From Mariprofundales bacterium (GTDB taxonomy: Bacteria; Pseudomonadota; Zetaproteobacteria; Mariprofundales; J009), in assembly GCA_030950645.1 (NCBI GenBank), contig JAUZRF010000014.1:6670-38669 (forward strand): DNA of 32,000 nt. Reading direction: 5' to 3'. The notes beneath the pieces are model-generated. The model saw only the letters and a program-made list of their open reading frames with translations. It was not told the origin of the DNA and ran no database searches. Below are positions 15 to 30,700 of this stretch, in pieces. The position numbers and the translations under genes were made by a program. Within the stretch, counting starts at the first letter, position 1. Every line of letters begins with the position of its first letter.

Positions 15-163
15 GTAACTACTCAGCTCACTCTCGGTTTTCCTGATAGCGGCGTTGAAAAATGCGCATTTACAGTAGTAAACTCCGCTTTTTCGCCTTG
101 CTATCAGGAAAACCGGAAGCAATCTGAGTAGTTACAGCCATTTTTGGGTAGGGTGCTGAATAG
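15..163 (+). mobile_element. MITE-like palindromic element, copy 1 (lineage I): 121-bp core 15-135 plus right extension with an atypical right end
   Basis: GTAACTACTCAGC left terminus at 15-27. Arms CGGTTTTCCTGATAGC / GCTATCAGGAAAACCG are inverted. The core ends with CTGAGTAGTTAC at 124-135. The extension ends GGGTAGGGTGCTGAATAGG instead of ...GCTGAGTAGTTAC. A 14-bp direct repeat TGAATAGGTAACTA lies at 7-20 and 157-170. Confidence 0.85.
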
Positions 164-4603: not shown

Positions 4604-4755
4604 GTAACTACTCAGCCCACTCCCGGTTTTCCTGCTAGCGGCGTTGAAAAATGCTCATTTACAGTAGTAAACTCCGCTTTTTCGCCTTGCTATCAGAAAA
4701 GCCGGAAGCGATCTGAGCAGTTACGGGATGTTTTCAATGGGTGCTGAGTAGTTAC
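4604..4755 (+). mobile_element. MITE-like element, copy 2 (lineage II, type-B right extension), 152 bp
   Basis: Termini are GTAACTACTCAGC ... GCTGAGTAGTTAC. A perfect 8-bp direct repeat TGTCGTTC lies at 4596-4603 and 4756-4763. The site is between the convergent rpoD and mrp genes. Confidence 0.95.
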
Positions 4756-5685: not shown

Positions 5686-5838
5686 GTAACTACTCATCTC
5701 ACTCTCGGTTTTCCTGATAACGGCGTTGAAAAATGCGCATTTACAGTAGTAAACTCCGCTTTTTCGCCTTGCTATCAGGAAAACCGGAAGCAATCTGAGC
5801 AGTTACCGCCATTTTTGGGTAGGGTGCTGAGTAGTTAT
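5686..5838 (+). mobile_element. MITE-like element, copy 3 (lineage I), 153 bp, no recognisable TSD
   Basis: GTAACTACTCATC ... GCTGAGTAGTTAT. It occupies 153 of the 201 bp between the divergent mrp (ATG 5660) and rsfS (TTG 5862). Flanks CTTGTGCT and TATGTTTG do not match. Confidence 0.9.
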
Positions 5839-6775: not shown

Positions 6776-6817
6776 GTGACTACTCAGCGCCCTACCAGAA
6801 GCAATCTGAGCAGTTAC
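6776..6817. mobile_element. 42-bp mini-derivative of the MITE family (termini only)
   Basis: GTGACTACTCAGCGCCCTACCAGAAGCAATCTGAGCAGTTAC. A perfect 8-bp direct repeat ATAGGAGG lies at 6768-6775 and 6818-6825. Confidence 0.85.
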
Positions 6818-6834
6818 ATAGGAGGTATGGTAAT

Positions 6835-9822: not shown

Positions 9823-9975
9823 ATAACTACTTAGCTCACTTCCGATTTTCCCGATAGCGGCGTTGAAAAATGCGCATTGACAGTAGTAAACTCCGCTTTT
9901 TCGCCTTGCTATCAGGAAAACCGGAAGCAATCTGAGCAGTTATAGCCATTTTTGGGTAGGGTGATGCGTAGTTAT
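9823..9975 (+). mobile_element. MITE-like element, copy 4 (lineage I), 153 bp, slightly decayed termini
   Basis: ATAACTACTTAGC ... GATGCGTAGTTAT. A perfect 8-bp direct repeat GTTTATTC lies at 9815-9822 and 9976-9983. The right copy contains the glmS stop codon. Confidence 0.93.
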
Positions 9976-13382: not shown

Positions 13383-13464
13383 GTAATTACTCAGCACCCA
13401 TTGAAAACATCCCATAACTGCTCAGATCGCTTCCGGTTTTTCTGATAGCAAGCTGAGTAGTTAC
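13383..13464 (-). mobile_element. 82-bp internal-deletion derivative of the MITE (reverse orientation, copy-2-like type-B extension)
   Basis: GTAATTACTCAGC...GCTGAGTAGTTAC. It lacks most of the left arm and the whole centre. A perfect 8-bp direct repeat GCAACCCC lies at 13375-13382 and 13465-13472. Confidence 0.9.
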
Positions 13465-13506
13465 GCAACCCCTTTGTTTAATTGTAGCTGTTCAGTGTAT
13501 CCCGTG

Positions 13507-13552
13507 ATCTAAGCAGTTACAGCCATTTTCTGGTAGGGTGCTGAGTAGTTAC
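13507..13552 (+). mobile_element. Solo right-end fragment of the MITE (5'-truncated)
   Basis: ATCTAAGCAGTTACAGCCATTTTCTGGTAGGGTGCTGAGTAGTTAC matches the right 46 bp of the full-length copies. It lies 14 bp from the atpC stop. Confidence 0.8.
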
Positions 13553-20823: not shown

Positions 20824-22230
20824 TTAGTAACGATAATGGTTTGGCTTGTAGGGGCCGGCGACAGGAACCCCTATGTAATCGGCCTGTTCTTGACTCAATG
20901 GCGTCAGATGGGCGCCGACCTTGTGCAGGTGAAGTCGTGCCACCTCTTCATCGAGATGCTTGGGCAGGGTGTAGACCTCATTGCTGTATTTACCCTCTGA
21001 GTCCGTGAACAGTTCGATCTGTGCTAGGGTTTGATTGCAGAACGAGTTGGACATAACAAAACTTGGATGTCCGGTCGCACATCCCAGATTTACCAACCGT
21101 CCCTCAGCCAGTAGCGTAATGCGAGTGCCATCTGGGAAGATGATCTGATCTACCTGCGGTTTCACATTATCCCACTCATATTTTCTCAGTGATGCTACAT
21201 CAATTTCACTATCGAAATGTCCGATATTACAGACAATAGCTTGATCCTGCATTGCAACCATGTGGTCGTGTTGAATGACATGGAAATTTCCGGTAGTGGT
21301 GACAAAGATGTTGCCCTGTTTGCAGGCATCATCCATATTGACCACGCGATAGCCCTCCATTGCGGCTTGCAGGGCGCAGATCGGATCGATCTCTGTTACC
21401 CACACGGTAGCGCCCATGCCCTTGAATGCTTGTGCACAACCCTTGCCGACATCGCCATACCCCAGCACCACACAGATCTTGCCGGCGATCATGACATCGG
21501 TAGCGCGTTTGATACCATCAAGCAGGGATTCGCGGCAGCCGTAGAGGTTGTCGAATTTGGATTTGGTTACCGAGTCGTTGACATTGATGGCCGGGAAAGG
21601 GAGGTCGCCTTTCTCCTGCATCTGATAGAGGCGATGAACACCGGTAGTGGTCTCTTCAGTAACACCACGGATTGCTGCCTTGCGCTCGGTGTACCAGCCA
21701 GGCTTGGTGGCTAACCGTTTTTTGATGGAGGCAAATAGTGCGACCTCTTCCTCACAGCTTGGGTGGTCGAGTACGGAAGGGTCGGCCTCTGCCTTCGAGC
21801 CCAAAATCACCAGCATGGTAGCATCACCGCCATCATCCAGGATTAAATTGGGGGTGCCACCATCGCTCCACTCCATGATGCGGTGGGAGAACTCCCAGTA
21901 CTCATCCAGGCTTTCACCCTTGAACGCATAGACGGGGATCTCTGTAGCGGCAATGGCCGCCGCAGCGTGATCCTGGGTGGAGAAGATGTTGCATGAAGCC
22001 CAGCGCACATCGGCGCCAAGTGCGGTCAGGGTTTCGATTAAGACACCGGTTTGGATGGTCATGTGTAGGGAGCCTGCGATGCGGGCGCCCTTAAGTGGCT
22101 GATCGGTGGCGTATTTTTCGCGAATAGCCATCAATCCGGGCATCTCGGTCTCGGCGATGGTCAACTCTTTGCGCCCGAAGGCGATGGTTTCAGCGGACAT
22201 GTCCGCTACTTGATAATCAGAAAAAGCCAT
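20824..22230 (-). CDS. ahcY: Adenosylhomocysteinase (S-adenosyl-L-homocysteine hydrolase)
   Basis: 468 aa with the NAD-binding motif [12 protein letters not shown] and the typical AhcY N- and C-termini (...PYKPNHYRY). Confidence 0.97.
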
Positions 22231-22265
22231 GGTTGGTTCTCATACTCCTATTGGTTTGATAAAAA

Positions 22266-22336
22266 TATAAGCACCGTTTGAAATTGCGACTGAGCCTGGC
22301 AAGTTGTTTCAAAACTTGTTGCAGTGCCCCTCAGTC
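22266..22336 (-). ncRNA. SAH riboswitch (SAH_riboswitch class) in the ahcY 5' leader
   Basis: The minus-strand sequence is GAGGGGCACUGCAAC[CAAGUU-uugaaac-AACUUG]CCAGGCUCAGUCGCAAUUUCAAACGGUGCUUA. It matches the remembered consensus GAGGAGCGCUGCGAC..hairpin..CAGGCUCGG..AACGGCGCUC. It sits ~35 nt upstream of the ahcY ATG. Confidence 0.72.
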
Positions 22337-22350
22337 TTAAGAGGTTTTTA

Positions 22351-22419
22351 CCACCGAGGTACAGGGTATACGGAGAAATATATTGTATATATCACGCAGT
22401 GTACTCTGTACCTCGGTGG
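22351..22419. repeat. Hairpin repeat, family 2 ('empty' form): 21-bp arms, 27-nt loop
   Basis: CCACCGAGGTACAGGGTATAC (22351-22371) pairs with GTGTACTCTGTACCTCGGTGG (22399-22419). 19 of 21 positions are complementary. T-run and AT-rich flanks as at the other two loci. Confidence 0.85.
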
Positions 22420-23716: not shown

Positions 23717-23837
23717 GTAACTACTCAGCTCACTCCCAGTTTTCCTGCTAGCGGCGTTGAAAAATGCTCATTTACAGTAGTAAACTCCGCTTTTTCGCCT
23801 TGCTATCAGAAAAACCGGAAGCAATCTGAGCAGTTAC
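23717..23837 (+). mobile_element. MITE-like element, copy 6 (lineage II): 121-bp core only, no right extension
   Basis: GTAACTACTCAGC ... CTGAGCAGTTAC. A perfect 8-bp direct repeat CCTCTTTT lies at 23709-23716 and 23838-23845. Confidence 0.95.
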
Positions 23838-24911: not shown

Positions 24912-25004
24912 GGGGAATTTTCATCGCGGTTTTCTTCCTCGACATCCTCGATATCCACGCCTCTGCGGTAAATCTTTTCTTGATGCAGATAGCCCATGCA
25001 ACCA

Positions 25005-26219
25005 TCATGCAAACATCTCCTGCGCCTTGGTCAATGCGGCAAACAGTGCATCGACCTCATCAATGGTATTGTAAACCGCAAACGAGGCGCGGGCGGTGGC
25101 GGGCACCTTGAAGTGTTGCATTACCGGCATGGCGCAGTGGTGTCCGGCACGGATCGCTACCCCTTCGCTGTCGAGAATGGTGCCGAGATCGTGCGGGTGT
25201 ACTCCGGCCAGTACAAAGGAGAGCACGCATGCCTTGTTTGGCGCGTTACCGATGATACGCAGCCCCGTAAATTGCTCGGCTTTTGCGGTGGCATAGGTAA
25301 GAAGCTCGCGCTCTTGCGCCGCAATGGCGGGAAATCCCAGCTGTTGCAACCAGTTGATGGCGGCACCGAAGCCAATCACGCCGGCAATATTGGGTGTTCC
25401 CGCCTCAAATTTGTGCGGTAGATCGTTGTACTGCGTCTGCGCAAAGCTGACGGTGCGGATCATGTCGCCACCACCCTGGTAGGGCGGCATGGCATCGAGC
25501 AGGGTCGCTTTGGCAATCAACACGCCGGTGCCGGTCGGGCCGTACATTTTGTGGGCGCTGGTGACATAAAAGTCGACATCCAACAGCTGGAGATCGACCG
25601 CGAGATGCCCTGCGGCCTGTGCACCATCGATCAAAACCAATGCCCCAACAGCGTGCGCCTTGGTGATGATTTCAGCAATCGGATTGATGGTGCCGAGAGC
25701 ATTGGACATCTGCACGATGCCAACCAATTTGGTGCGCTCGGAGAGTAGGTCATCCAGTTGCTCCATGCACAGCGCGCCACAGTCATCCATCGGTAGCACC
25801 TTAATGACGGCACCAGTGCGTGTAGCGATCATCTGCCACGGCACGATGTTGGAGTGGTGCTCCATCTCGCTAAGCAGGATTTCATCACCTGCGTGAAGAT
25901 TGGTTCCACCCCAGCTTGCTGCGACCAGATTGATCGCCTCGGTGGCGCCGCGGGTAAAGATCACCTCGCGGATGGAGGCGGCATTGAACAGTTTGGCAAT
26001 GTTGCTGCGTGCCGACTCATAGGCGGCGGTAGCACGCTCGGAGAGCAGGTGTACGCCACGGTGGATATTGGCATTGTCCGCCTGGTAGTAGTGACGCACG
26101 GCATCGATCACGCACTGCGGTTTTTGGGTGGTAGCGGCGTTGTCGAGATAGACCAGTGGATGGCCATGCGCCTGCTGATGCAGAATCGGAAACTGCTCGC
26201 GGATGGCATCGATATTCAT
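25005..26219 (-). CDS. sufS: Cysteine desulfurase SufS (class II)
   Basis: 404 aa with PLP lysine context TSAHKMYGPTG and active-site loop RAGHHCAMP. Confidence 0.95.
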   Translation of the reverse strand: MNIDAIREQFPILHQQAHGHPLVYLDNAATTQKPQCVIDAVRHYYQADNANIHRGVHLLSERATAAYESARSNIAKLFNAASIREVIFTRGATEAINLVAASWGGTNLHAGDEILLSEMEHHSNIVPWQMIATRTGAVIKVLPMDDCGALCMEQLDDLLSERTKLVGIVQMSNALGTINPIAEIITKAHAVGALVLIDGAQAAGHLAVDLQLLDVDFYVTSAHKMYGPTGTGVLIAKATLLDAMPPYQGGGDMIRTVSFAQTQYNDLPHKFEAGTPNIAGVIGFGAAINWLQQLGFPAIAAQERELLTYATAKAEQFTGLRIIGNAPNKACVLSFVLAGVHPHDLGTILDSEGVAIRAGHHCAMPVMQHFKVPATARASFAVYNTIDEVDALFAALTKAQEMFA

Positions 26220-26249
26220 GCGATCTTCCGGTGCTGGAAGATTTTTTTA

Positions 26250-26317
26250 CCACCAAGGCACAAAGAGACAAAGTTTAATGAAACATCGAACACACTTTGT
26301 GCCTTCGTGCCGTTGTG
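26250..26317. repeat. Hairpin repeat, family 2 ('empty' form, imperfect) in the sufD-sufS spacer
   Basis: CCACCAAGGCACAAAGAGACAAAGT (26250-26274) faces ACTTTGTGCCTTCGTGCCGTTGTG (26294-26317). About 19 of 24 positions are complementary. It has the same TTTTTTTACCACC left flank as the 22351 locus. Confidence 0.75.
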
Positions 26318-26345
26318 TTTGAAAATATTACATTTATTCATCCTA

Positions 26346-27518
26346 TTACGCTCCATGTGGCAGTTTGGCCATGATGGCTTGTTCGATCACTTTGCGTAGC
26401 TCGGGGATCGCTACCGTATCGAGCAACGCTTCGGCGAAGGCGATGGTGAGTAGCTGGCGCGCTTCGGCCTTGGCTATCCCGCGTGATTGTAGGTAAAACA
26501 GCTGTTCGGCATCGAGTTGACCGACGGTGGCACCGTGGGCGCATTTTACATCGTCGTTGTAGATCTCCAGCTCCGGTTTGGTATCCACCTGTGCCCGTTT
26601 GGAGAGCAGCAGGTTGGCGTTGGTTTGTGCTGAATCGGTACCATTCGCCCCCTTGGCCACCCGCACGGCACCGTTGAAAACTACGCGGGCGCGGTCATCG
26701 GCTACCGTGCGGTAGTGGACGCGACTGCGGCAGTGTGGGGCAGCGTGGTTGATATGCAGGTGGTGGTCGGCGTGCTGCCGCCCCGCTAGCACCATCAGTC
26801 CATTGAGGGTGCACTCCGCCCCCTGCTCCAGCAGCGTGGTGACGAGGTCAAGTCGGGAGAGCGCACTGCCCAGTTCGGCTGCAAACAGACGGTAGCGGCT
26901 ATCGCGGTGCTGTCCGATCTCGATCCGGCCGAGATGAAAATGGCTGGCGCTGTTTTGTTGGATGCGGTAGTGGTCAAGGGCGGCATTGGCTTGCAGACGA
27001 ATCTGGCATAAGCTGGTACCCACTCCGGCACCTGTGGCAACGCCGTGAAAATGGTCGATCAATGTTGCGTTGGTACCTGCCCCGATATGGATACCATGGA
27101 GACGCGCGCTGCTTCCTGTTGCTTCAGGGTGTGTGATCAGAATTGGCTGTTCCAACTCAACGCCGTCCGCGATGCAGAGGCAGATTCCGCCATCCGCCAA
27201 GGCGCGAGCCAACTTGGCGCTGTAGGGCAGGGGGGGCGCTGGCGGCAGATCAAACAGCCCGTGATCGCTTTCGCGCCAGGGTCGTAGTGTGACGCCATCT
27301 GGCAGTGCACGGTCGCAACTCGCCGTAGCGGCATTGATGCGGATGCTATCGAGCGTCAGTTCGGAGGGTGTAGCCACAGGCGTGCCCGCACGCTGTTGCC
27401 ACCACGCCGCACCCAGCGCCGCTACCAGCGGTGATAAACTCGTATATTTCCAATCCTCATCCTGTAGCGAAGGCAAGGCGATTCCTGTCAATTGCTGCGG
27501 CGCATTATTGGTCAGCAT
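26346..27518 (-). CDS. sufD: Fe-S cluster assembly protein SufD
   Basis: 390 aa with the N-terminal EDWKYTSL motif and a SufB/D beta-helix C-terminal region (GATVGQLDAEQLFYLQSRGI). Confidence 0.9.
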   Translation of the reverse strand: MLTNNAPQQLTGIALPSLQDEDWKYTSLSPLVAALGAAWWQQRAGTPVATPSELTLDSIRINAATASCDRALPDGVTLRPWRESDHGLFDLPPAPPLPYSAKLARALADGGICLCIADGVELEQPILITHPEATGSSARLHGIHIGAGTNATLIDHFHGVATGAGVGTSLCQIRLQANAALDHYRIQQNSASHFHLGRIEIGQHRDSRYRLFAAELGSALSRLDLVTTLLEQGAECTLNGLMVLAGRQHADHHLHINHAAPHCRSRVHYRTVADDRARVVFNGAVRVAKGANGTDSAQTNANLLLSKRAQVDTKPELEIYNDDVKCAHGATVGQLDAEQLFYLQSRGIAKAEARQLLTIAFAEALLDTVAIPELRKVIEQAIMAKLPHGA

Positions 27519-27552
27519 TAATGGTTACTCTGTGTCTCTGTGGTGAAAATAT

Positions 27553-28308
27553 TCATGCGGCAGTATCCTTTTCCAGTAGCCAGTCATATCCCTCTTTCTC
27601 AAGCTTATGCGCTAGCTTAGCATCGCCGGAGGTGAGAATTTCCCCATTGGCCAAGACATGAACAAAATCGGGTGTAATGTAATCGAGCAGGCGTTGGTAG
27701 TGGGTGATCATGACGATGGCGCGTTCGGGATTGCGGAGCTTATTGATGCCACCAGCGACGATGCGCAGGGCATCAATGTCCAGCCCAGAGTCGGTCTCAT
27801 CGAGCAGCGCCAATTTGGGCTCAAGTACCGCCATTTGGAAGATCTCGTTGCGCTTTTTCTCGCCGCCGGAAAAACCGACATTAACCGAGCGCGACAGGAA
27901 TGCGGGGTCAAGTTCAACCAGCCGAGCCTTCTCCTGCACCATCTGCATAAAATCCATCGCATCAAGCTCTTCCAGCCCCTGTTGCCTGCGCCGGGCATTG
28001 ACCCCTGCCTTAAGCAGGTAGGTGTTGTTGACCCCAGGGATCTCCACCGGGTACTGAAAGGCGAGGAAAATCCCCGCCCACGCCCGCTCCTCCGGTTTCA
28101 TCTCCAGCAGATCTTGATCGAAGTAGCGGATGCTGCCTTGGGTAACGGTGTAACCATTGCGGCCTGCAATCACATTCGACAGCGTCGATTTCCCCGACCC
28201 ATTCGGCCCCATAATTGCATGCACCTCGCCAGCGTTGATGGTGAGGTTGATCCCCTTAAGAATAGCCTTGCCATCCACTTCGACATGTAAATTTTCAATT
28301 TTTATCAT
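27553..28308 (-). CDS. sufC: Fe-S cluster assembly ATPase SufC
   Basis: 251 aa with Walker A GPNGSGKST, ABC signature FSGGEKKR and Walker B LLDETDSGLD. Confidence 0.97.
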   Translation of the reverse strand: MIKIENLHVEVDGKAILKGINLTINAGEVHAIMGPNGSGKSTLSNVIAGRNGYTVTQGSIRYFDQDLLEMKPEERAWAGIFLAFQYPVEIPGVNNTYLLKAGVNARRRQQGLEELDAMDFMQMVQEKARLVELDPAFLSRSVNVGFSGGEKKRNEIFQMAVLEPKLALLDETDSGLDIDALRIVAGGINKLRNPERAIVMITHYQRLLDYITPDFVHVLANGEILTSGDAKLAHKLEKEGYDWLLEKDTAA

Positions 28309-28366
28309 ATGTTAAAACCTTTTTTATTAACCACAAAGGCACGAAGACACAAAGTTTTTTGTATCA

Positions 28367-28698
28367 TTATAGTGCAATGCGTTTAATCCCTTGTTTGATA
28401 AGTGGTAACTACTCAGCTCACTCCCGGTTTTTCTGATAGCGGCGTTGAAAAATGCTCATTTACAGTAGTAAACTCCGCTTTTTCGCCTTGCTATCAGAAA
28501 AACCGGAAGCAATCTGAGCAGTTACAGCCATTTTCTGGTCGGGTGCTGAGTCGTTACGATAAGTGGAACATTGAAGTTCACCAATAGTCCCAGCTTGGTG
28601 TTGGTCAGCTTCATATAGGTGAGAATTTGGGCTTGATGCACGCGAAAGATTGCATCAACTACATGGCGGGAGAGCGTATTGAGAGTGTTGCTAACCAT
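28367..28698 (-). pseudogene. GxxExxY-family (PD-(D/E)XK-like) gene remnant: internal deletion of the catalytic core and disruption by a MITE insertion
   Basis: Removing 28405-28557 and one TSD copy gives [21 protein letters not shown]|[35 protein letters not shown]. The N-terminal (LS..I..AI.VH) and C-terminal (AQ.L.Y.K....K.GLL.NF...L.K.GIKRI) signatures of the family are present. About 70 central residues are missing. Confidence 0.75.
28405..28557 (+). mobile_element. MITE-like element, copy 7 (lineage II), 153 bp, inserted into the GxxExxY remnant
   Basis: GTAACTACTCAGC ... GCTGAGTCGTTAC. A perfect 8-bp direct repeat GATAAGTG lies at 28397-28404 and 28558-28565. Excision restores the reading frame. 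Confidence 0.96.
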
Positions 28699-28743
28699 TT
28701 TTCCTTTGTGTCTTCGTGCCTTTGTGGTTATTTTCCTCTTTCT

Positions 28744-30198
28744 TCATCCCACGGCACCCTCTAAAGAGACCTCCATCAGTCGGTTGGCCTCGACAGCGAA
28801 CTCCATCGGCAATACATCGAAGACATCCTTGCAGAAGCCGTTGACGATCATCTGGATCGCATCCTCCTCGGATAGCCCGCGTTGCTGGCAGTAGAAGAGC
28901 TGATCTTCATTGATCTTGGAGGTGGTGGCCTCGTGTTCCACGGTGGCGGTTGGATTGGCCACCTCCATGTAGGGGAAGGTGTGGGCGCCGCACTGGTCGC
29001 CGAGTAGCAGCGAGTCGCACTGGGTGTGGTTGCGCGCCCCTTCTGCCCCTTTGCCGATTTTGACCAGTCCGCGATAGGATTGGTTGCCGTGACCTGCGGC
29101 GATCCCTTTGGAAATAATGGTGCTTTTGGTGCGTTTGCCGAGGTGGATCATCTTGGTGCCGGTATCGGCCTGTTGGTAGTTGTTGGTCAGTGCGACCGAA
29201 AAGAACTCGCCCACCGAATCATCACCGCGCAGCACGCAGCTGGGGTATTTCCAGGTGATGGCGGAGCCAGTCTCCACCTGGGTCCACGAGATGCGGGCGC
29301 GCGCCCCTCGGCAGTCACCGCGTTTGGTGACGAAGTTGTAGATGCCGCCGACGCCATTTTCATCGCCAGGATACCAGTTTTGCACCGTGGCGTACTTGAT
29401 CTGGGCATCTTCCAGTGCTACCAACTCCACCACTGCGGCATGGAGCTGGTTTTCATCGCGCATCGGGGCGGTGCACCCCTCCAGGTAGGAGACGAAGGCG
29501 GCATCTTCGGCAATAATCAGGGTGCGCTCGAATTGGCCGGTGTTGGCGGCGTTGATGCGAAAGTAGGTGGAGAGCTCCATCGGGCAACGCACCCCTTTGG
29601 GGATGAAAACAAAGGAGCCATCGGTGAACACCGCCGAGTTAAGGGCGGCAAAGAAGTTGTCGCTCGGTGGCACCACGCTACCGAGGTAGGCTTGCACCAA
29701 CTCTGGATATTCGCGCACCGCTTCCGAGATCGGGCAGAAGATTACCCCCGCCTCTTTGAGCTTGGCTTTGAAGGTGGTGGCAACCGATACCGAATCGAAT
29801 ATCGCATCGACCGCCACGCCGGCCAACATCTCCTGCTCCCGTAGTGGAATCCCTAGCTTGGCGTAGGTTTCCAACAGCTTAGGATCTACCTCATCCAGGC
29901 TTTTTGGGCCATCGCCTTTGCTTTTTGGCGCGGAGTAGTAGGAGATGGCTTGGTAATCGATTGGTGTGAAATTGACATCTGCCCAGGTCGGCTCAGAGAT
30001 GGTGAGCCAGTGGCGAAAAGCCTCTAGTCGCCACTCGGTGAGCCAGGTTGGCTCCTCCTTTTTGGCTGAGATGTGGCGAATCGTCGCCTCGCTTAGACCC
30101 GGCGGCAGGGTATCTTGCTCAATGTCGGTGACAAAACCGGCATCGTAATCGCGGTTGGCAAAGTCGGCGGCGGTAGGGGTATCAGTAGGGTTGCTCAT
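28744..30198 (-). CDS. sufB: Fe-S cluster assembly protein SufB
   Basis: The start is taken at MSNPTDTP (ATG 30198, ATGA overlap with the regulator stop). The product is 484 aa (485 codons including the stop), with typical SufB sequence (e.g. [32 protein letters not shown]). Confidence 0.95.
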
Positions 30199-30671
30199 GA
30201 TTCCTCCAGATAGATTGGGGTGGTGTGGTGGTGGTGAATGGTCGGTTGATGAACAAATCTTGGTTGAAAATCTTCGCCTGCCATGTCGGCTAGGGTGATG
30301 GAGTTGAGTAGCGTACGCATCGCCTCGTTGATGCGCTGCCAGTTGCCGCGTAGGGCGCAATCGTGCTGCTGATCACACTGGCTGTGGTCACTATTGCACT
30401 CGGTGAGCGCGATCTCACCCTCCAGCGCATCGACCACCTCTTTTACGGTGATGGCCGATGGCTGCCGCGCCAGACGATAGCCGCCTTGGGCACCGCGCTG
30501 AGAGACGAGAAGGTTTTTATTTAGTAATGATTGCAAAACCTTACTTACGGTTGGCGCAGGCACACCGGTGGCTAGTGACAGGCCATTGGCCTTCCATACC
30601 GGCTGCTCGGAGGCGGCAAGATGTGACATCAGTAGCATGCCATAATCGGTGATTTTTGAGAGACGAAGCAT
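30195..30671 (-). CDS. Rrf2-family transcriptional regulator (SUF-system Fe-S assembly regulator type)
   Basis: [19 protein letters not shown] is an Rrf2 wHTH. The Cys cluster is [15 protein letters not shown]. It is translationally coupled to sufB. An alternative TTG start at 30692 would add 7 aa. Confidence 0.85.
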
Positions 30672-30700
30672 AGAATCGTAGTGGTACTCCAATGTGGAGC

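Follow-up and report, generated by a model that had tools for sequence, protein, structure and literature searches.

We analyzed a 32,000-nt stretch of DNA from a Mariprofundales bacterium (contig JAUZRF010000014.1, positions 6,670 to 38,669), hereafter the window, in which the genes sufB and sufC of the suf operon are separated by a large insert. This insert is probably a dead, promoterless, foldback-like DNA cassette, in which a GxxExxY gene was bracketed by the two arms of a hairpin and has since decayed. We place it in a class of GxxExxY cassettes that lie within arms of octamer repeats and sit in operons, in the gap from a stop codon to the following start codon. The class is undescribed as far as the searchable literature shows; within that literature, our search returned no paper with the arm sequences or with GxxExxY cassettes. 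An intact cassette would carry a promoterless gene of ~125–130 codons for a minimal PD-(D/E)XK nuclease within inverted arms of 20–35 nt. Each arm would comprise a short terminal sequence (..TTAAC/TTCAC-C) and two to four tandem CAC-NRAG-R octamers, with the purine-rich arm first, and a Shine–Dalgarno-like sequence would lie in or beside the 5′ arm. In the suf cassette, the catalytic core appears to have been lost by deletion between Val-His sites, and a MITE (miniature inverted-repeat transposable element) appears to have struck later, leaving the arms still perfect.

Anatomy of the sufB–sufC insert

The coordinates of the features are given in Table 1. SufB of the window matched, at 100% identity, a protein from a metagenome-assembled genome (MAG) of the Mariprofundales (Zetaproteobacteria). 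A repeat finder detected in the sufB–sufC spacer an inverted repeat of 27 nt, 100% complementary, with 349 nt enclosed. In 100 dinucleotide-preserving shuffles of the window, no match to the arm was found at ≤3 mismatches. The gene remnant lay inside inverted CAC-NRAG-R arms with the purine-rich arm first, in the stop-to-start gap of the co-directional sufB and sufC and on the same strand, and the 5′ arm fitted both the arm grammar found across bacteria and the flank consensus TTTAAC/CAC. The 3′ (right) arm and its flank were conserved in a relative with 94% SufB identity (L121). The remnant gene filled the loop, its ATG being 5 nt from the 5′ arm and its true stop codon 12 nt from the 3′ arm. 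A first-pass annotation, made from the sequence alone, had described a 435-bp spacer with inverted arms and had given these two distances; all of this was borne out, with a repeat one base longer than noted. The same annotation overlooked the MITE insertion and three further arm elements in the suf operon.

Folding of the spacer RNA yielded a 27-bp closing stem and a hairpin of the MITE (-162 kcal/mol, z = -10.2). A scan of the spacer for terminators and promoters gave no candidate terminator and nothing resembling a promoter on the sense strand; a promoter of its own for sufC was rejected because the promoter-like matches in the spacer lie only on the antisense strand. The lack of such a site on the sense strand is weak evidence that sufB and sufC may be co-transcribed across the spacer.

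Table 1. Coordinates of the features in the window and of octamer arrays on other contigs.
Feature	Position	Strand	Remarks
Rrf2-type SUF regulator	30195-30692	minus	NCBIfam equivalog model
sufB	28744-~30207	minus	NF008773 SufB, 898 bits; stop TGA 13 nt upstream of cassette 5′ arm
sufB–sufC spacer	28309-28743		435 nt
Cassette 5′ arm	28704-28730	minus	TAACCACAAAGGCACGAAGACACAAAG on operon sense strand: TAAC terminus, then three CAC-NRAG-R octamer units
GxxExxY remnant, piece 1	28566-28698	minus	from ATG 28698; 21 N-terminal codons fused to C-terminal part ending NFNVP
Deletion junction in remnant	~28636-28641		at Val-His codons
MITE target-site duplication, copy 1	28558-28565		GATAAGTG on plus strand, CACTTATC on sense strand
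153-bp MITE	28405-28557		terminal repeats GTAACTACTCAGC; within C-terminal codons of remnant; own 36-nt-arm hairpin
MITE target-site duplication, copy 2	28397-28404		8 bp
GxxExxY remnant, piece 2	28367-28396	minus	KQGIKRIAL and stop TAA (28367-28369); in frame after excision of MITE and one duplication copy
Cassette 3′ arm	28328-28354	minus	CTTTGTGTCTTCGTGCCTTTGTGGTTA on sense strand; then A-rich stretch, sufC ribosome-binding site, ATG
sufC	27553-28308	minus	TIGR01978, 363.8 bits
Solo purine-type arm	27528-27549	minus	TTTTCACCACAGAGACACAGAG; occupies most of sufC–sufD spacer; positional counterpart in L121
sufD	26346-27518	minus	NCBIfam equivalog model
Cargo-less hairpin, same arm family	26247-26320	minus	sufD–sufS spacer; 26-nt and 27-nt arms, 21-nt loop
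sufS	25005-26219	minus	NCBIfam equivalog model
Degenerate arm-like repeat	24937-24972	minus	TTTACCGCAGAGGCGTGGATATCGAGGATGTCGAGG; between sufS and next gene; L121 counterpart ATTACCGCGGAGGCGCGGAGAACGCGGAG
MITE copies in window	15-159, 4604-4755, 5686-5837, 9824-9974, 23717-23837, 28405-28557		fragments 13383-13552, 6794-6818
Palindrome	22351-22419		33-nt arms, 82% complementary, 3-nt loop; between ORF ending 22432 and SAH riboswitch
SAH riboswitch	22262-22338	minus	RF01057, 49 bits; upstream of 468-aa ORF
468-aa ORF	20824-22230		
GGCACAAA arrays	L009 3777-3864; L115 3769-3871; L071 3033-3087; L099 782-828		on other contigs

The enclosed gene and its two lesions

The open reading frame (ORF) within the arms matched the GxxExxY model TIGR04256 with 43.8 bits (cutoff 35), at positions 76–115 of 116 only, and the PDDEXK_3 model PF13366 with 43.2 bits (cutoff 22), again at profile positions 76–115 only. 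NCBI annotates it (P0121) as "GxxExxY protein [Mariprofundales bacterium]". The 153-bp insertion near its end has the features of a MITE, i.e., terminal inverted repeats, a target duplication, near-identical copies and no ORF. The window holds six copies of 90–97.5% identity, at least three of them with clean 8-bp target duplications. In-silico removal of the MITE and one duplication copy restored ...NFNVPLIKQGIKRIAL followed by a stop, giving a 56-residue reconstruction whose C-terminal motif LIKQGIKRIAL is common to the remnant and the homologues P0123, P0124 and P0129. The annotated ORF stops early, at 28522, because the MITE breaks the reading frame. The density of this MITE is ~1 per 5 kb of window, one copy measures 121 bp, and no transposase candidate for it was identified in the window.

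The other lesion is a deletion of ~70 central codons, with the junction ..IFRVH/QAQILTY... At the position of this junction, Val-His occurs twice in intact homologues, once in ..VHKxLGPG.. and again, separately, in ..LPVHxAQxLTY..; the junction therefore fits a deletion between short direct repeats. The loss of ~70 central codons by microhomology-mediated deletion had been proposed in the first-pass annotation; the loss was confirmed by the profile coverage and by the comparison with homologues, and the RVH/QAQ junction agrees with the proposed route. The GxxExxY motif (GPGLLExVYE) and the residues D74/E84/K86, which are invariant in intact homologues, were absent from the 56-residue reconstruction. 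With the motif and the PD-(D/E)XK site residues deleted, the gene is dead, i.e., a pseudogene. A homology search with the reconstruction returned 12 matches, including independently deleted remnants. One of these (P0128) is a second centrally deleted copy, with arms, between two methylmalonyl-CoA mutase subunit genes (mutA/mutB), and another (P0132) represents a third independent central deletion of the gene.

The GxxExxY family comprised at least 8,000 proteins at E ≤ 1e-10. The function of the PF13366 family is listed as unknown, and a phylogenetic analysis of it indicated multiple horizontal transfers between divisions (PMC3424549). An AlphaFold2 model of an intact member showed an α/β fold (predicted local distance difference test 93, predicted template modeling score 0.86). 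Foldseek matched it in the PDB only weakly (E-values above 0.06), and the best matches were PD-(D/E)XK proteins: lambda exonuclease, SSO0001 (Cas4-like) and a splicing endonuclease. The invariance of D74/E84/K86 and these weak fold matches suggest that intact copies may encode an active PD-(D/E)XK enzyme.

GxxExxY genes selected by protein alone

We selected 80 metagenome loci solely by the protein motif of GxxExxY. Among the 73 loci with both flanks, 37 had a flanking inverted repeat that scored 14 or more, whereas shuffled sequence reached ~8–14 at best; by inspection, most of the remaining loci also had octamer-type arms. A strict arm pattern was found at the 5′ side in 39 of 67 loci, at the 3′ side in 52 of 67 and at both sides in 37 of 67, compared with 1 of 54 upstream and five matches downstream in control windows placed 555–700 nt away. 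The arms matched each other specifically: the mean arm match score was 15.7 within a cassette and 9.4 between cassettes, and 28 of 69 cassettes exceeded the 95th percentile of the between-cassette scores. The arm units varied by cassette (CACAAAG, CACGAAG, CACCAAG, CACGGAG, CACAGAG, CGCGAAG, CACTAAA and others) with a constant grammar.

In well-preserved cassettes, the 5′ arm started at the stop codon of the upstream gene or only a few bases from it, and the downstream ATG lay 5–17 nt past the 3′ arm. With neighbor strands inferred from the longest open frame, the upstream neighbor was on the strand of the GxxExxY gene in 48 of 58 loci and the downstream neighbor in 41 of 49; in 29 loci both neighbors had the orientation of the cassette, and in 3 both were opposed to it. 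Cassettes that are host-oriented between stop and start codons would be transcribed by operon read-through. In Sphingomonas parapaucimobilis, the order is fabD-[cassette]-fabG-acpP-fabF, with an annotated ORF that reads through the 3′ arm, and the same architecture occurred in complete isolate genomes. Two polysaccharide-export operons (L242, L250) held GxxExxY genes, four-helix-bundle genes (PF05635) and GIY-YIG genes of 84–103 aa, all host-oriented. In addition, longer GxxExxY proteins in the databases carried arm-encoded N-terminal peptides (MKKYCHIATKAQRNEM.., ..ATKAQR.., ..RHQDTKAQR.., ..ATKTQRHKKG.., MNHQDTKT..). Odd N-terminal peptides encoded by the arm had been described at first pass, and they were found here. 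The idea of a selfish cassette that can lodge in mRNA operons is likewise supported by the host-oriented positions inside operons.

The arm family across bacteria

We then scanned 185,579 species-representative genomes with the 23-nt arm pattern CACNANGGCACRAAGRNACAAAG. At least 120 genome stretches matched, compared with about four chance matches by our own estimate, which assumes uniform base composition over 596 Gb. The matches listed come from Planctomycetota, Bacteroidota, Cyanobacteriota, Chloroflexota, Verrucomicrobiota, Acidobacteriota, Spirochaetota, Desulfobacterota, several proteobacterial classes, Chlamydiota and others, and the isolates among them include Fischerella, Nostoc, Flavobacterium, Pedobacter, Sphingorhabdus and Kouleothrix. 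The arms listed are tandem CAC-NRAG-R octamers, mostly in short cargo-less hairpins with loops of 10–150 nt. For loops of ≤40 nt, the purine-rich arm came first in 92 hairpins and second in 17. The flank consensus was AAAATTTAAC/CAC ... GTG/GTTAAAAA, an exact fit to the arms of the window. No general conserved loop motif was found across the empty hairpins. Predicted viral contigs contained the arm pattern in 36 stretches, all of them empty hairpins.

A T-run followed 5 of 160 hairpins and an A-run followed 47, indicating that the hairpins are not intrinsic terminators. A terminator role was rejected on this basis and on the lack of a terminator-like site in the spacer.

Other arrangements of the arm unit were also observed. 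Pure tandem GGCACAAA octamer arrays of up to ~13 units occurred in Opitutales and other MAGs (Table 1); three of them (L009, L099, L115) have no inverted partner, indicating that the arm unit also acts as a microsatellite. A Methanotrichaceae archaeon MAG carried the bacterial-type arm pattern on two contigs (L035, L085), which represents either a real transfer to Archaea or binning contamination. On another contig (L199), positions 1073-2479 contain a row of six or more octamer-arm hairpins whose loops of ~80–125 nt are related to one another, beside a GxxExxY cassette and a four-helix-bundle cassette; a non-coding hairpin element seems to have been amplified locally there.

Arm elements at the other suf junctions and in relatives

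Beyond the sufB–sufC insert, the remaining suf junctions of the window held a solo arm, a cargo-less hairpin and a degenerate repeat (Table 1). A permissive two-unit arm pattern had 8 matches in the window, where 0.54 were expected, and 7 of them fell in suf junctions. By eye, the loop of the sufD–sufS hairpin and the sufB–sufC loop of L121 look related in opposite orientation. The gene after sufS is NifU-like by synteny with L121.

We compared the sufB–sufC spacer in five Mariprofundales lineages and found it to be polymorphic. It measures 12 nt in Mariprofundus ferrinatatus (L123, SufB 82%) and 43 nt in L122 (SufB 88%), both with a whole operon that is compact; 113 nt in L121, with an empty hairpin; 166–170 nt in M. 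erugo (L124, L125, SufB 83%), with hairpins of CGCAAAG/CGCAGAG arms of 9-nt period at three junctions; and 435 nt in the window. The right arm of the L121 hairpin is homologous to that of the window and the left arm is of another type (CGCGGAG). In one relative, the sufB–sufC hairpin pairs largely via G·U on the sense strand but looks chimeric. The other three suf junctions of L121 also hold arm elements. In L025, a Mariprofundaceae MAG, sufB is preceded by one hairpin and followed by another, which is empty; after it a GxxExxY gene begins (..NELARQVVDAAFHVHK..) and is cut off by the contig end. These differing lengths and contents indicate that suf junctions are hot spots of fast turnover and that insert-free operons exist; a check for cassette-free orthologous operons, suggested at first pass, was thus answered by L122 and M. 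ferrinatatus. As a separate observation, the sufD–sufS junction of L121 (8548-8898) is tandemly duplicated, with the sufD end, hairpin and sufS start present twice and the first hairpin copy damaged.

These comparisons also bear on the possibility that the insert is a chance similarity or an assembly artefact at a repeat. The source is a MAG, and assemblers can join unrelated contigs at repeated arms. However, the arms are complementary at 27 of 27 positions with no comparable match in shuffled sequence, relatives assembled independently also have an insert at this junction, either hairpins or a GxxExxY cassette, and complete isolate genomes show the same architecture. We therefore give this explanation practically no weight.

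Another explanation is that the hairpin benefits the host, as a module resembling repetitive extragenic palindromic (REP) sequences or bacterial interspersed mosaic elements (BIMEs), or as a ribosome-binding-site module, which stabilizes upstream mRNA, tunes relative expression or provides Shine–Dalgarno-like sequences, the GxxExxY gene being a secondary passenger in a pre-existing loop. The positions and composition of the arms are compatible with this. Most arms among the matches listed form empty hairpins, in viral contigs too; arm elements occupy all four suf junctions here and in L121; the sufD start is directly preceded by solo purine arms (with ..GGAGG.. in L121); AAGG/GGAG motifs abound in the arms, whose 3′ ends show GGTGA immediately ahead of the next start codons; and terminator-like T-runs are avoided. 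However, the independent central deletions that retain both ends and the arms (window, P0128 and P0132) show a route from cassette to empty hairpin, and arms match specifically within single cassettes. The sense strand bears no G·U signature (below), and close relatives have compact junctions. Moreover, empty hairpins show no preference for co-directional neighbors (56 of 83, against an assumed genome background of ~70% co-directional neighbors). On balance, we consider a host-beneficial origin improbable.

RNA processing or copying as DNA

A stem of 27 bp is long enough for RNase III. We weighed the explanation that the insert is an RNA-level module akin to an intervening sequence (IVS), whose purpose is processing: RNase III would cut the stem, excise the loop and split the sufB message from that of sufCDS. 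The perfect 27-bp stem that is predicted to close the spacer accords with this, as does the co-orientation and presumed co-transcription of cassettes with host genes. Precedents exist: in the 23S IVSs of Coxiella and Leptospira, RNase III cleaves a 28-bp stem at the borders of an S23p (four-helix-bundle) ORF (PMC4990558), and the enzyme also cuts Correia terminal repeats within mRNAs (PMC10969869).

We assumed that upkeep of the stem by pairing of the sense transcript should favor G·U over A·C mismatches on the sense strand. The largely G·U-paired sufB–sufC hairpin of one relative would fit this expectation. However, in 63 gene-oriented cassettes we counted 64 G·U on the sense strand, 74 A·C on the sense strand (G·U on the antisense strand) and 154 other mismatches, and in 56 empty hairpins between co-directional genes the respective counts were 44, 50 and 93. 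That is, there was no sense-strand G·U excess, and transversion mismatches were common. Owing to this symmetry, RNA pairing was rejected as the force that maintains the arms. Symmetric mismatches together with cassette-specific arm matching favor arms that were copied as DNA and then decayed neutrally, as terminal repeats of mobile elements do. The mismatch counts give RNase III processing no evolutionary support; the stem may still form in RNA and be cut.

The cargo and the location of the insert bear on the same explanation. Like an IVS, the window element has complementary termini, with the perfect stem closing the fold; unlike an IVS, it lies in an mRNA operon spacer rather than in an rRNA helix, and its cargo belongs to PF13366 rather than PF05635. 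Among ~205 loci, none lay in rRNA by blastn with conserved 23S/16S segments, a soft negative, and Rfam found no rRNA in the window, with an S-adenosylhomocysteine (SAH) riboswitch as its only match. Outside the window, four-helix-bundle genes, the IVS-type cargo, were also found within inverted arms of short tandem units, beside GxxExxY cassettes and elsewhere (L081, with five in tandem; L199; L242). The arm architecture is thus common to several cargo families, the units around these genes (CACGAG hexamers, GGAATAAT octamers and GGAAGATGGACGAAGG) being unlike those of GxxExxY cassettes. GxxExxY genes were not confirmed as cargo of 23S IVSs; a link to IVSs would run only through the shared architecture and the neighboring four-helix-bundle cassettes. 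Furthermore, ribosomes that translate the cargo would compete with closing of the stem over 349 nt, and the relatives with compact suf operons manage without the hairpin. Therefore, we regard processing as an unlikely purpose of the element. The suf copy would instead be a passenger that is now inert, and suf mRNA would still fold into its 27-bp stem; RNase III may cut that stem, with cutting not being what maintains it.

Three side observations concern RNA and palindromic features. On contig L081 (912-5301), five tandem, near-identical four-helix-bundle cassettes with CACGAG arms each have a second short palindrome (CACCACCGGCAGAGCCGGTGG). In the window, the SAH riboswitch lies upstream of a 468-aa ORF that is presumably SAH hydrolase, and a palindrome unrelated to the octamer arms, next to the riboswitch, may be a terminator or an operator (Table 1).

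Possible mobility and origin of the cassettes

The preferred reading is that of a DNA-level cassette. The cassette would be a selfish mobile element resembling a foldback transposon, many of the empty hairpins may be its non-autonomous or deleted derivatives, and the GxxExxY nuclease would serve the propagation of the element itself.

Several observations weigh against this reading. GxxExxY-like sequence was found in 5 of the 120 arm-bearing stretches among the matches listed, which are a non-random sample. The first-pass view that hairpin arms and GxxExxY gene form one cassette thus stood in one direction, from gene to arms, and did not stand in the other, as the arms are not specific to the gene; the arms could exist in their own right, or the gene could be making use of structures that belong to the host. 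L121 shares, by position, the arm elements of all four suf junctions, and a host function could be what retains them. GxxExxY has no solved sequence homologue, and its fold matches are weak, as given above. Plasmid records almost never contain the gene (7 of 72,556), and phage records do not contain it (0 of 50,697). We caught no cassette in the act of transposing, and no pair of filled and empty sites was close enough to define the ends. A target-site duplication of the cassette was not found; the flanks (TTTAAC/CAC ... GTG/GTTAAA) seem to continue the inverted repeat outward and do not resemble direct repeats.

A phage or plasmid vehicle was rejected on the record counts above, the viral contigs holding empty hairpins only. 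For two cassettes present in identical copies (P0183, P0158), every contig showed the same context, giving no evidence of mobility.

A broader proposal joins these elements, and we offer it tentatively, as possible but doubtful. GxxExxY cassettes, four-helix-bundle cassettes (including ORF-bearing 23S IVSs) and empty octamer hairpins may form one pan-bacterial, foldback-like class, whose arms would be tandem units resembling Shine–Dalgarno and anti-Shine–Dalgarno sequences. Such arms would permit insertion between stop and start codons without breaking operon expression: there would be no terminator, the Shine–Dalgarno sequence of the cargo would lie in the 5′ arm, the 3′ GGTGA would serve the downstream gene, and the stem would loop out the insert. 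The PD-(D/E)XK nuclease would move the element, e.g., through cleavage, at the arms, of DNA in hairpin or cruciform form.

If the cassette reading is true, at least 8,000 "hypothetical" GxxExxY proteins would gain a defined lifestyle as promoterless cassettes in the gaps of housekeeping operons. The host operons of a real class would include suf, fab, methylmalonyl-CoA mutase and polysaccharide export, across many phyla with one arm grammar. ORF-bearing rRNA intervening sequences would be tied to a wider element family, with an origin that is testable by comparing cassettes, deleted cassettes and empty hairpins. Odd N- and C-terminal peptides in protein databases (HKGTK, TKAQR, FVPLCLCAF) would be translated arms, and the arms would be a likely cause of contig breaks in metagenomes. 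At the suf locus, the 435-nt gap would be the junk of a dead element and not a suf regulator, with a 27-bp mRNA stem that may affect expression of sufB relative to sufCDS.

Comparison with known systems

The ORF of the window is a fragment of the known GxxExxY family (TIGR04256/PF13366), without the GxxExxY motif and the D...E-x-K core. The closest parallel in layout is the 23S IVS of Coxiella burnetii and Leptospira (PMC4990558), in which a small ORF fills the space edge to edge within inverted termini of ~27–28 bp. Like the cassettes, these IVSs have no promoter of their own, are distributed sporadically, suggesting horizontal transfer, and carry an ORF that is often poorly expressed or decayed. 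The cassette differs in lying in an mRNA operon and not in rRNA helix 9, 25 or 45, in its PD-(D/E)XK cargo and in its tandem-octamer arms.

Correia elements, also called Neisseria miniature insertion sequences (NEMIS), are known for TA target duplications and integration host factor sites. Along with the enterobacterial repetitive intergenic consensus (ERIC), they resemble the cassette as short inverted-repeat inserts in operons that are co-transcribed, and Correia and ERIC hairpins can be processed by RNase III or RNase E (PMC10969869). In contrast to these genus-specific and gene-free elements, the octamer arms span many phyla, and a minority enclose a conserved nuclease gene.

The REP and BIME sequences of enterobacteria are abundant intergenic hairpins, often within operons, that can affect mRNA stability, and REPs are mobilized by REP-associated tyrosine transposases (RAYTs). 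Unlike the cassettes, REPs are lineage-specific, enclose no genes and are not octamer repeats, and the cassette arms differ from them in sequence as well as in sub-repeat structure. Foldback (FB) transposons have arms of short tandem sub-repeats whose length varies by gain and loss of units; most copies are non-coding, and a minority carry a central ORF. The cassette family is like FB transposons in this architecture only, with sub-repeat arms, mostly coding-free copies and a minority with an ORF; FB elements are eukaryotic, much larger and unrelated to the cassette in sequence or protein.

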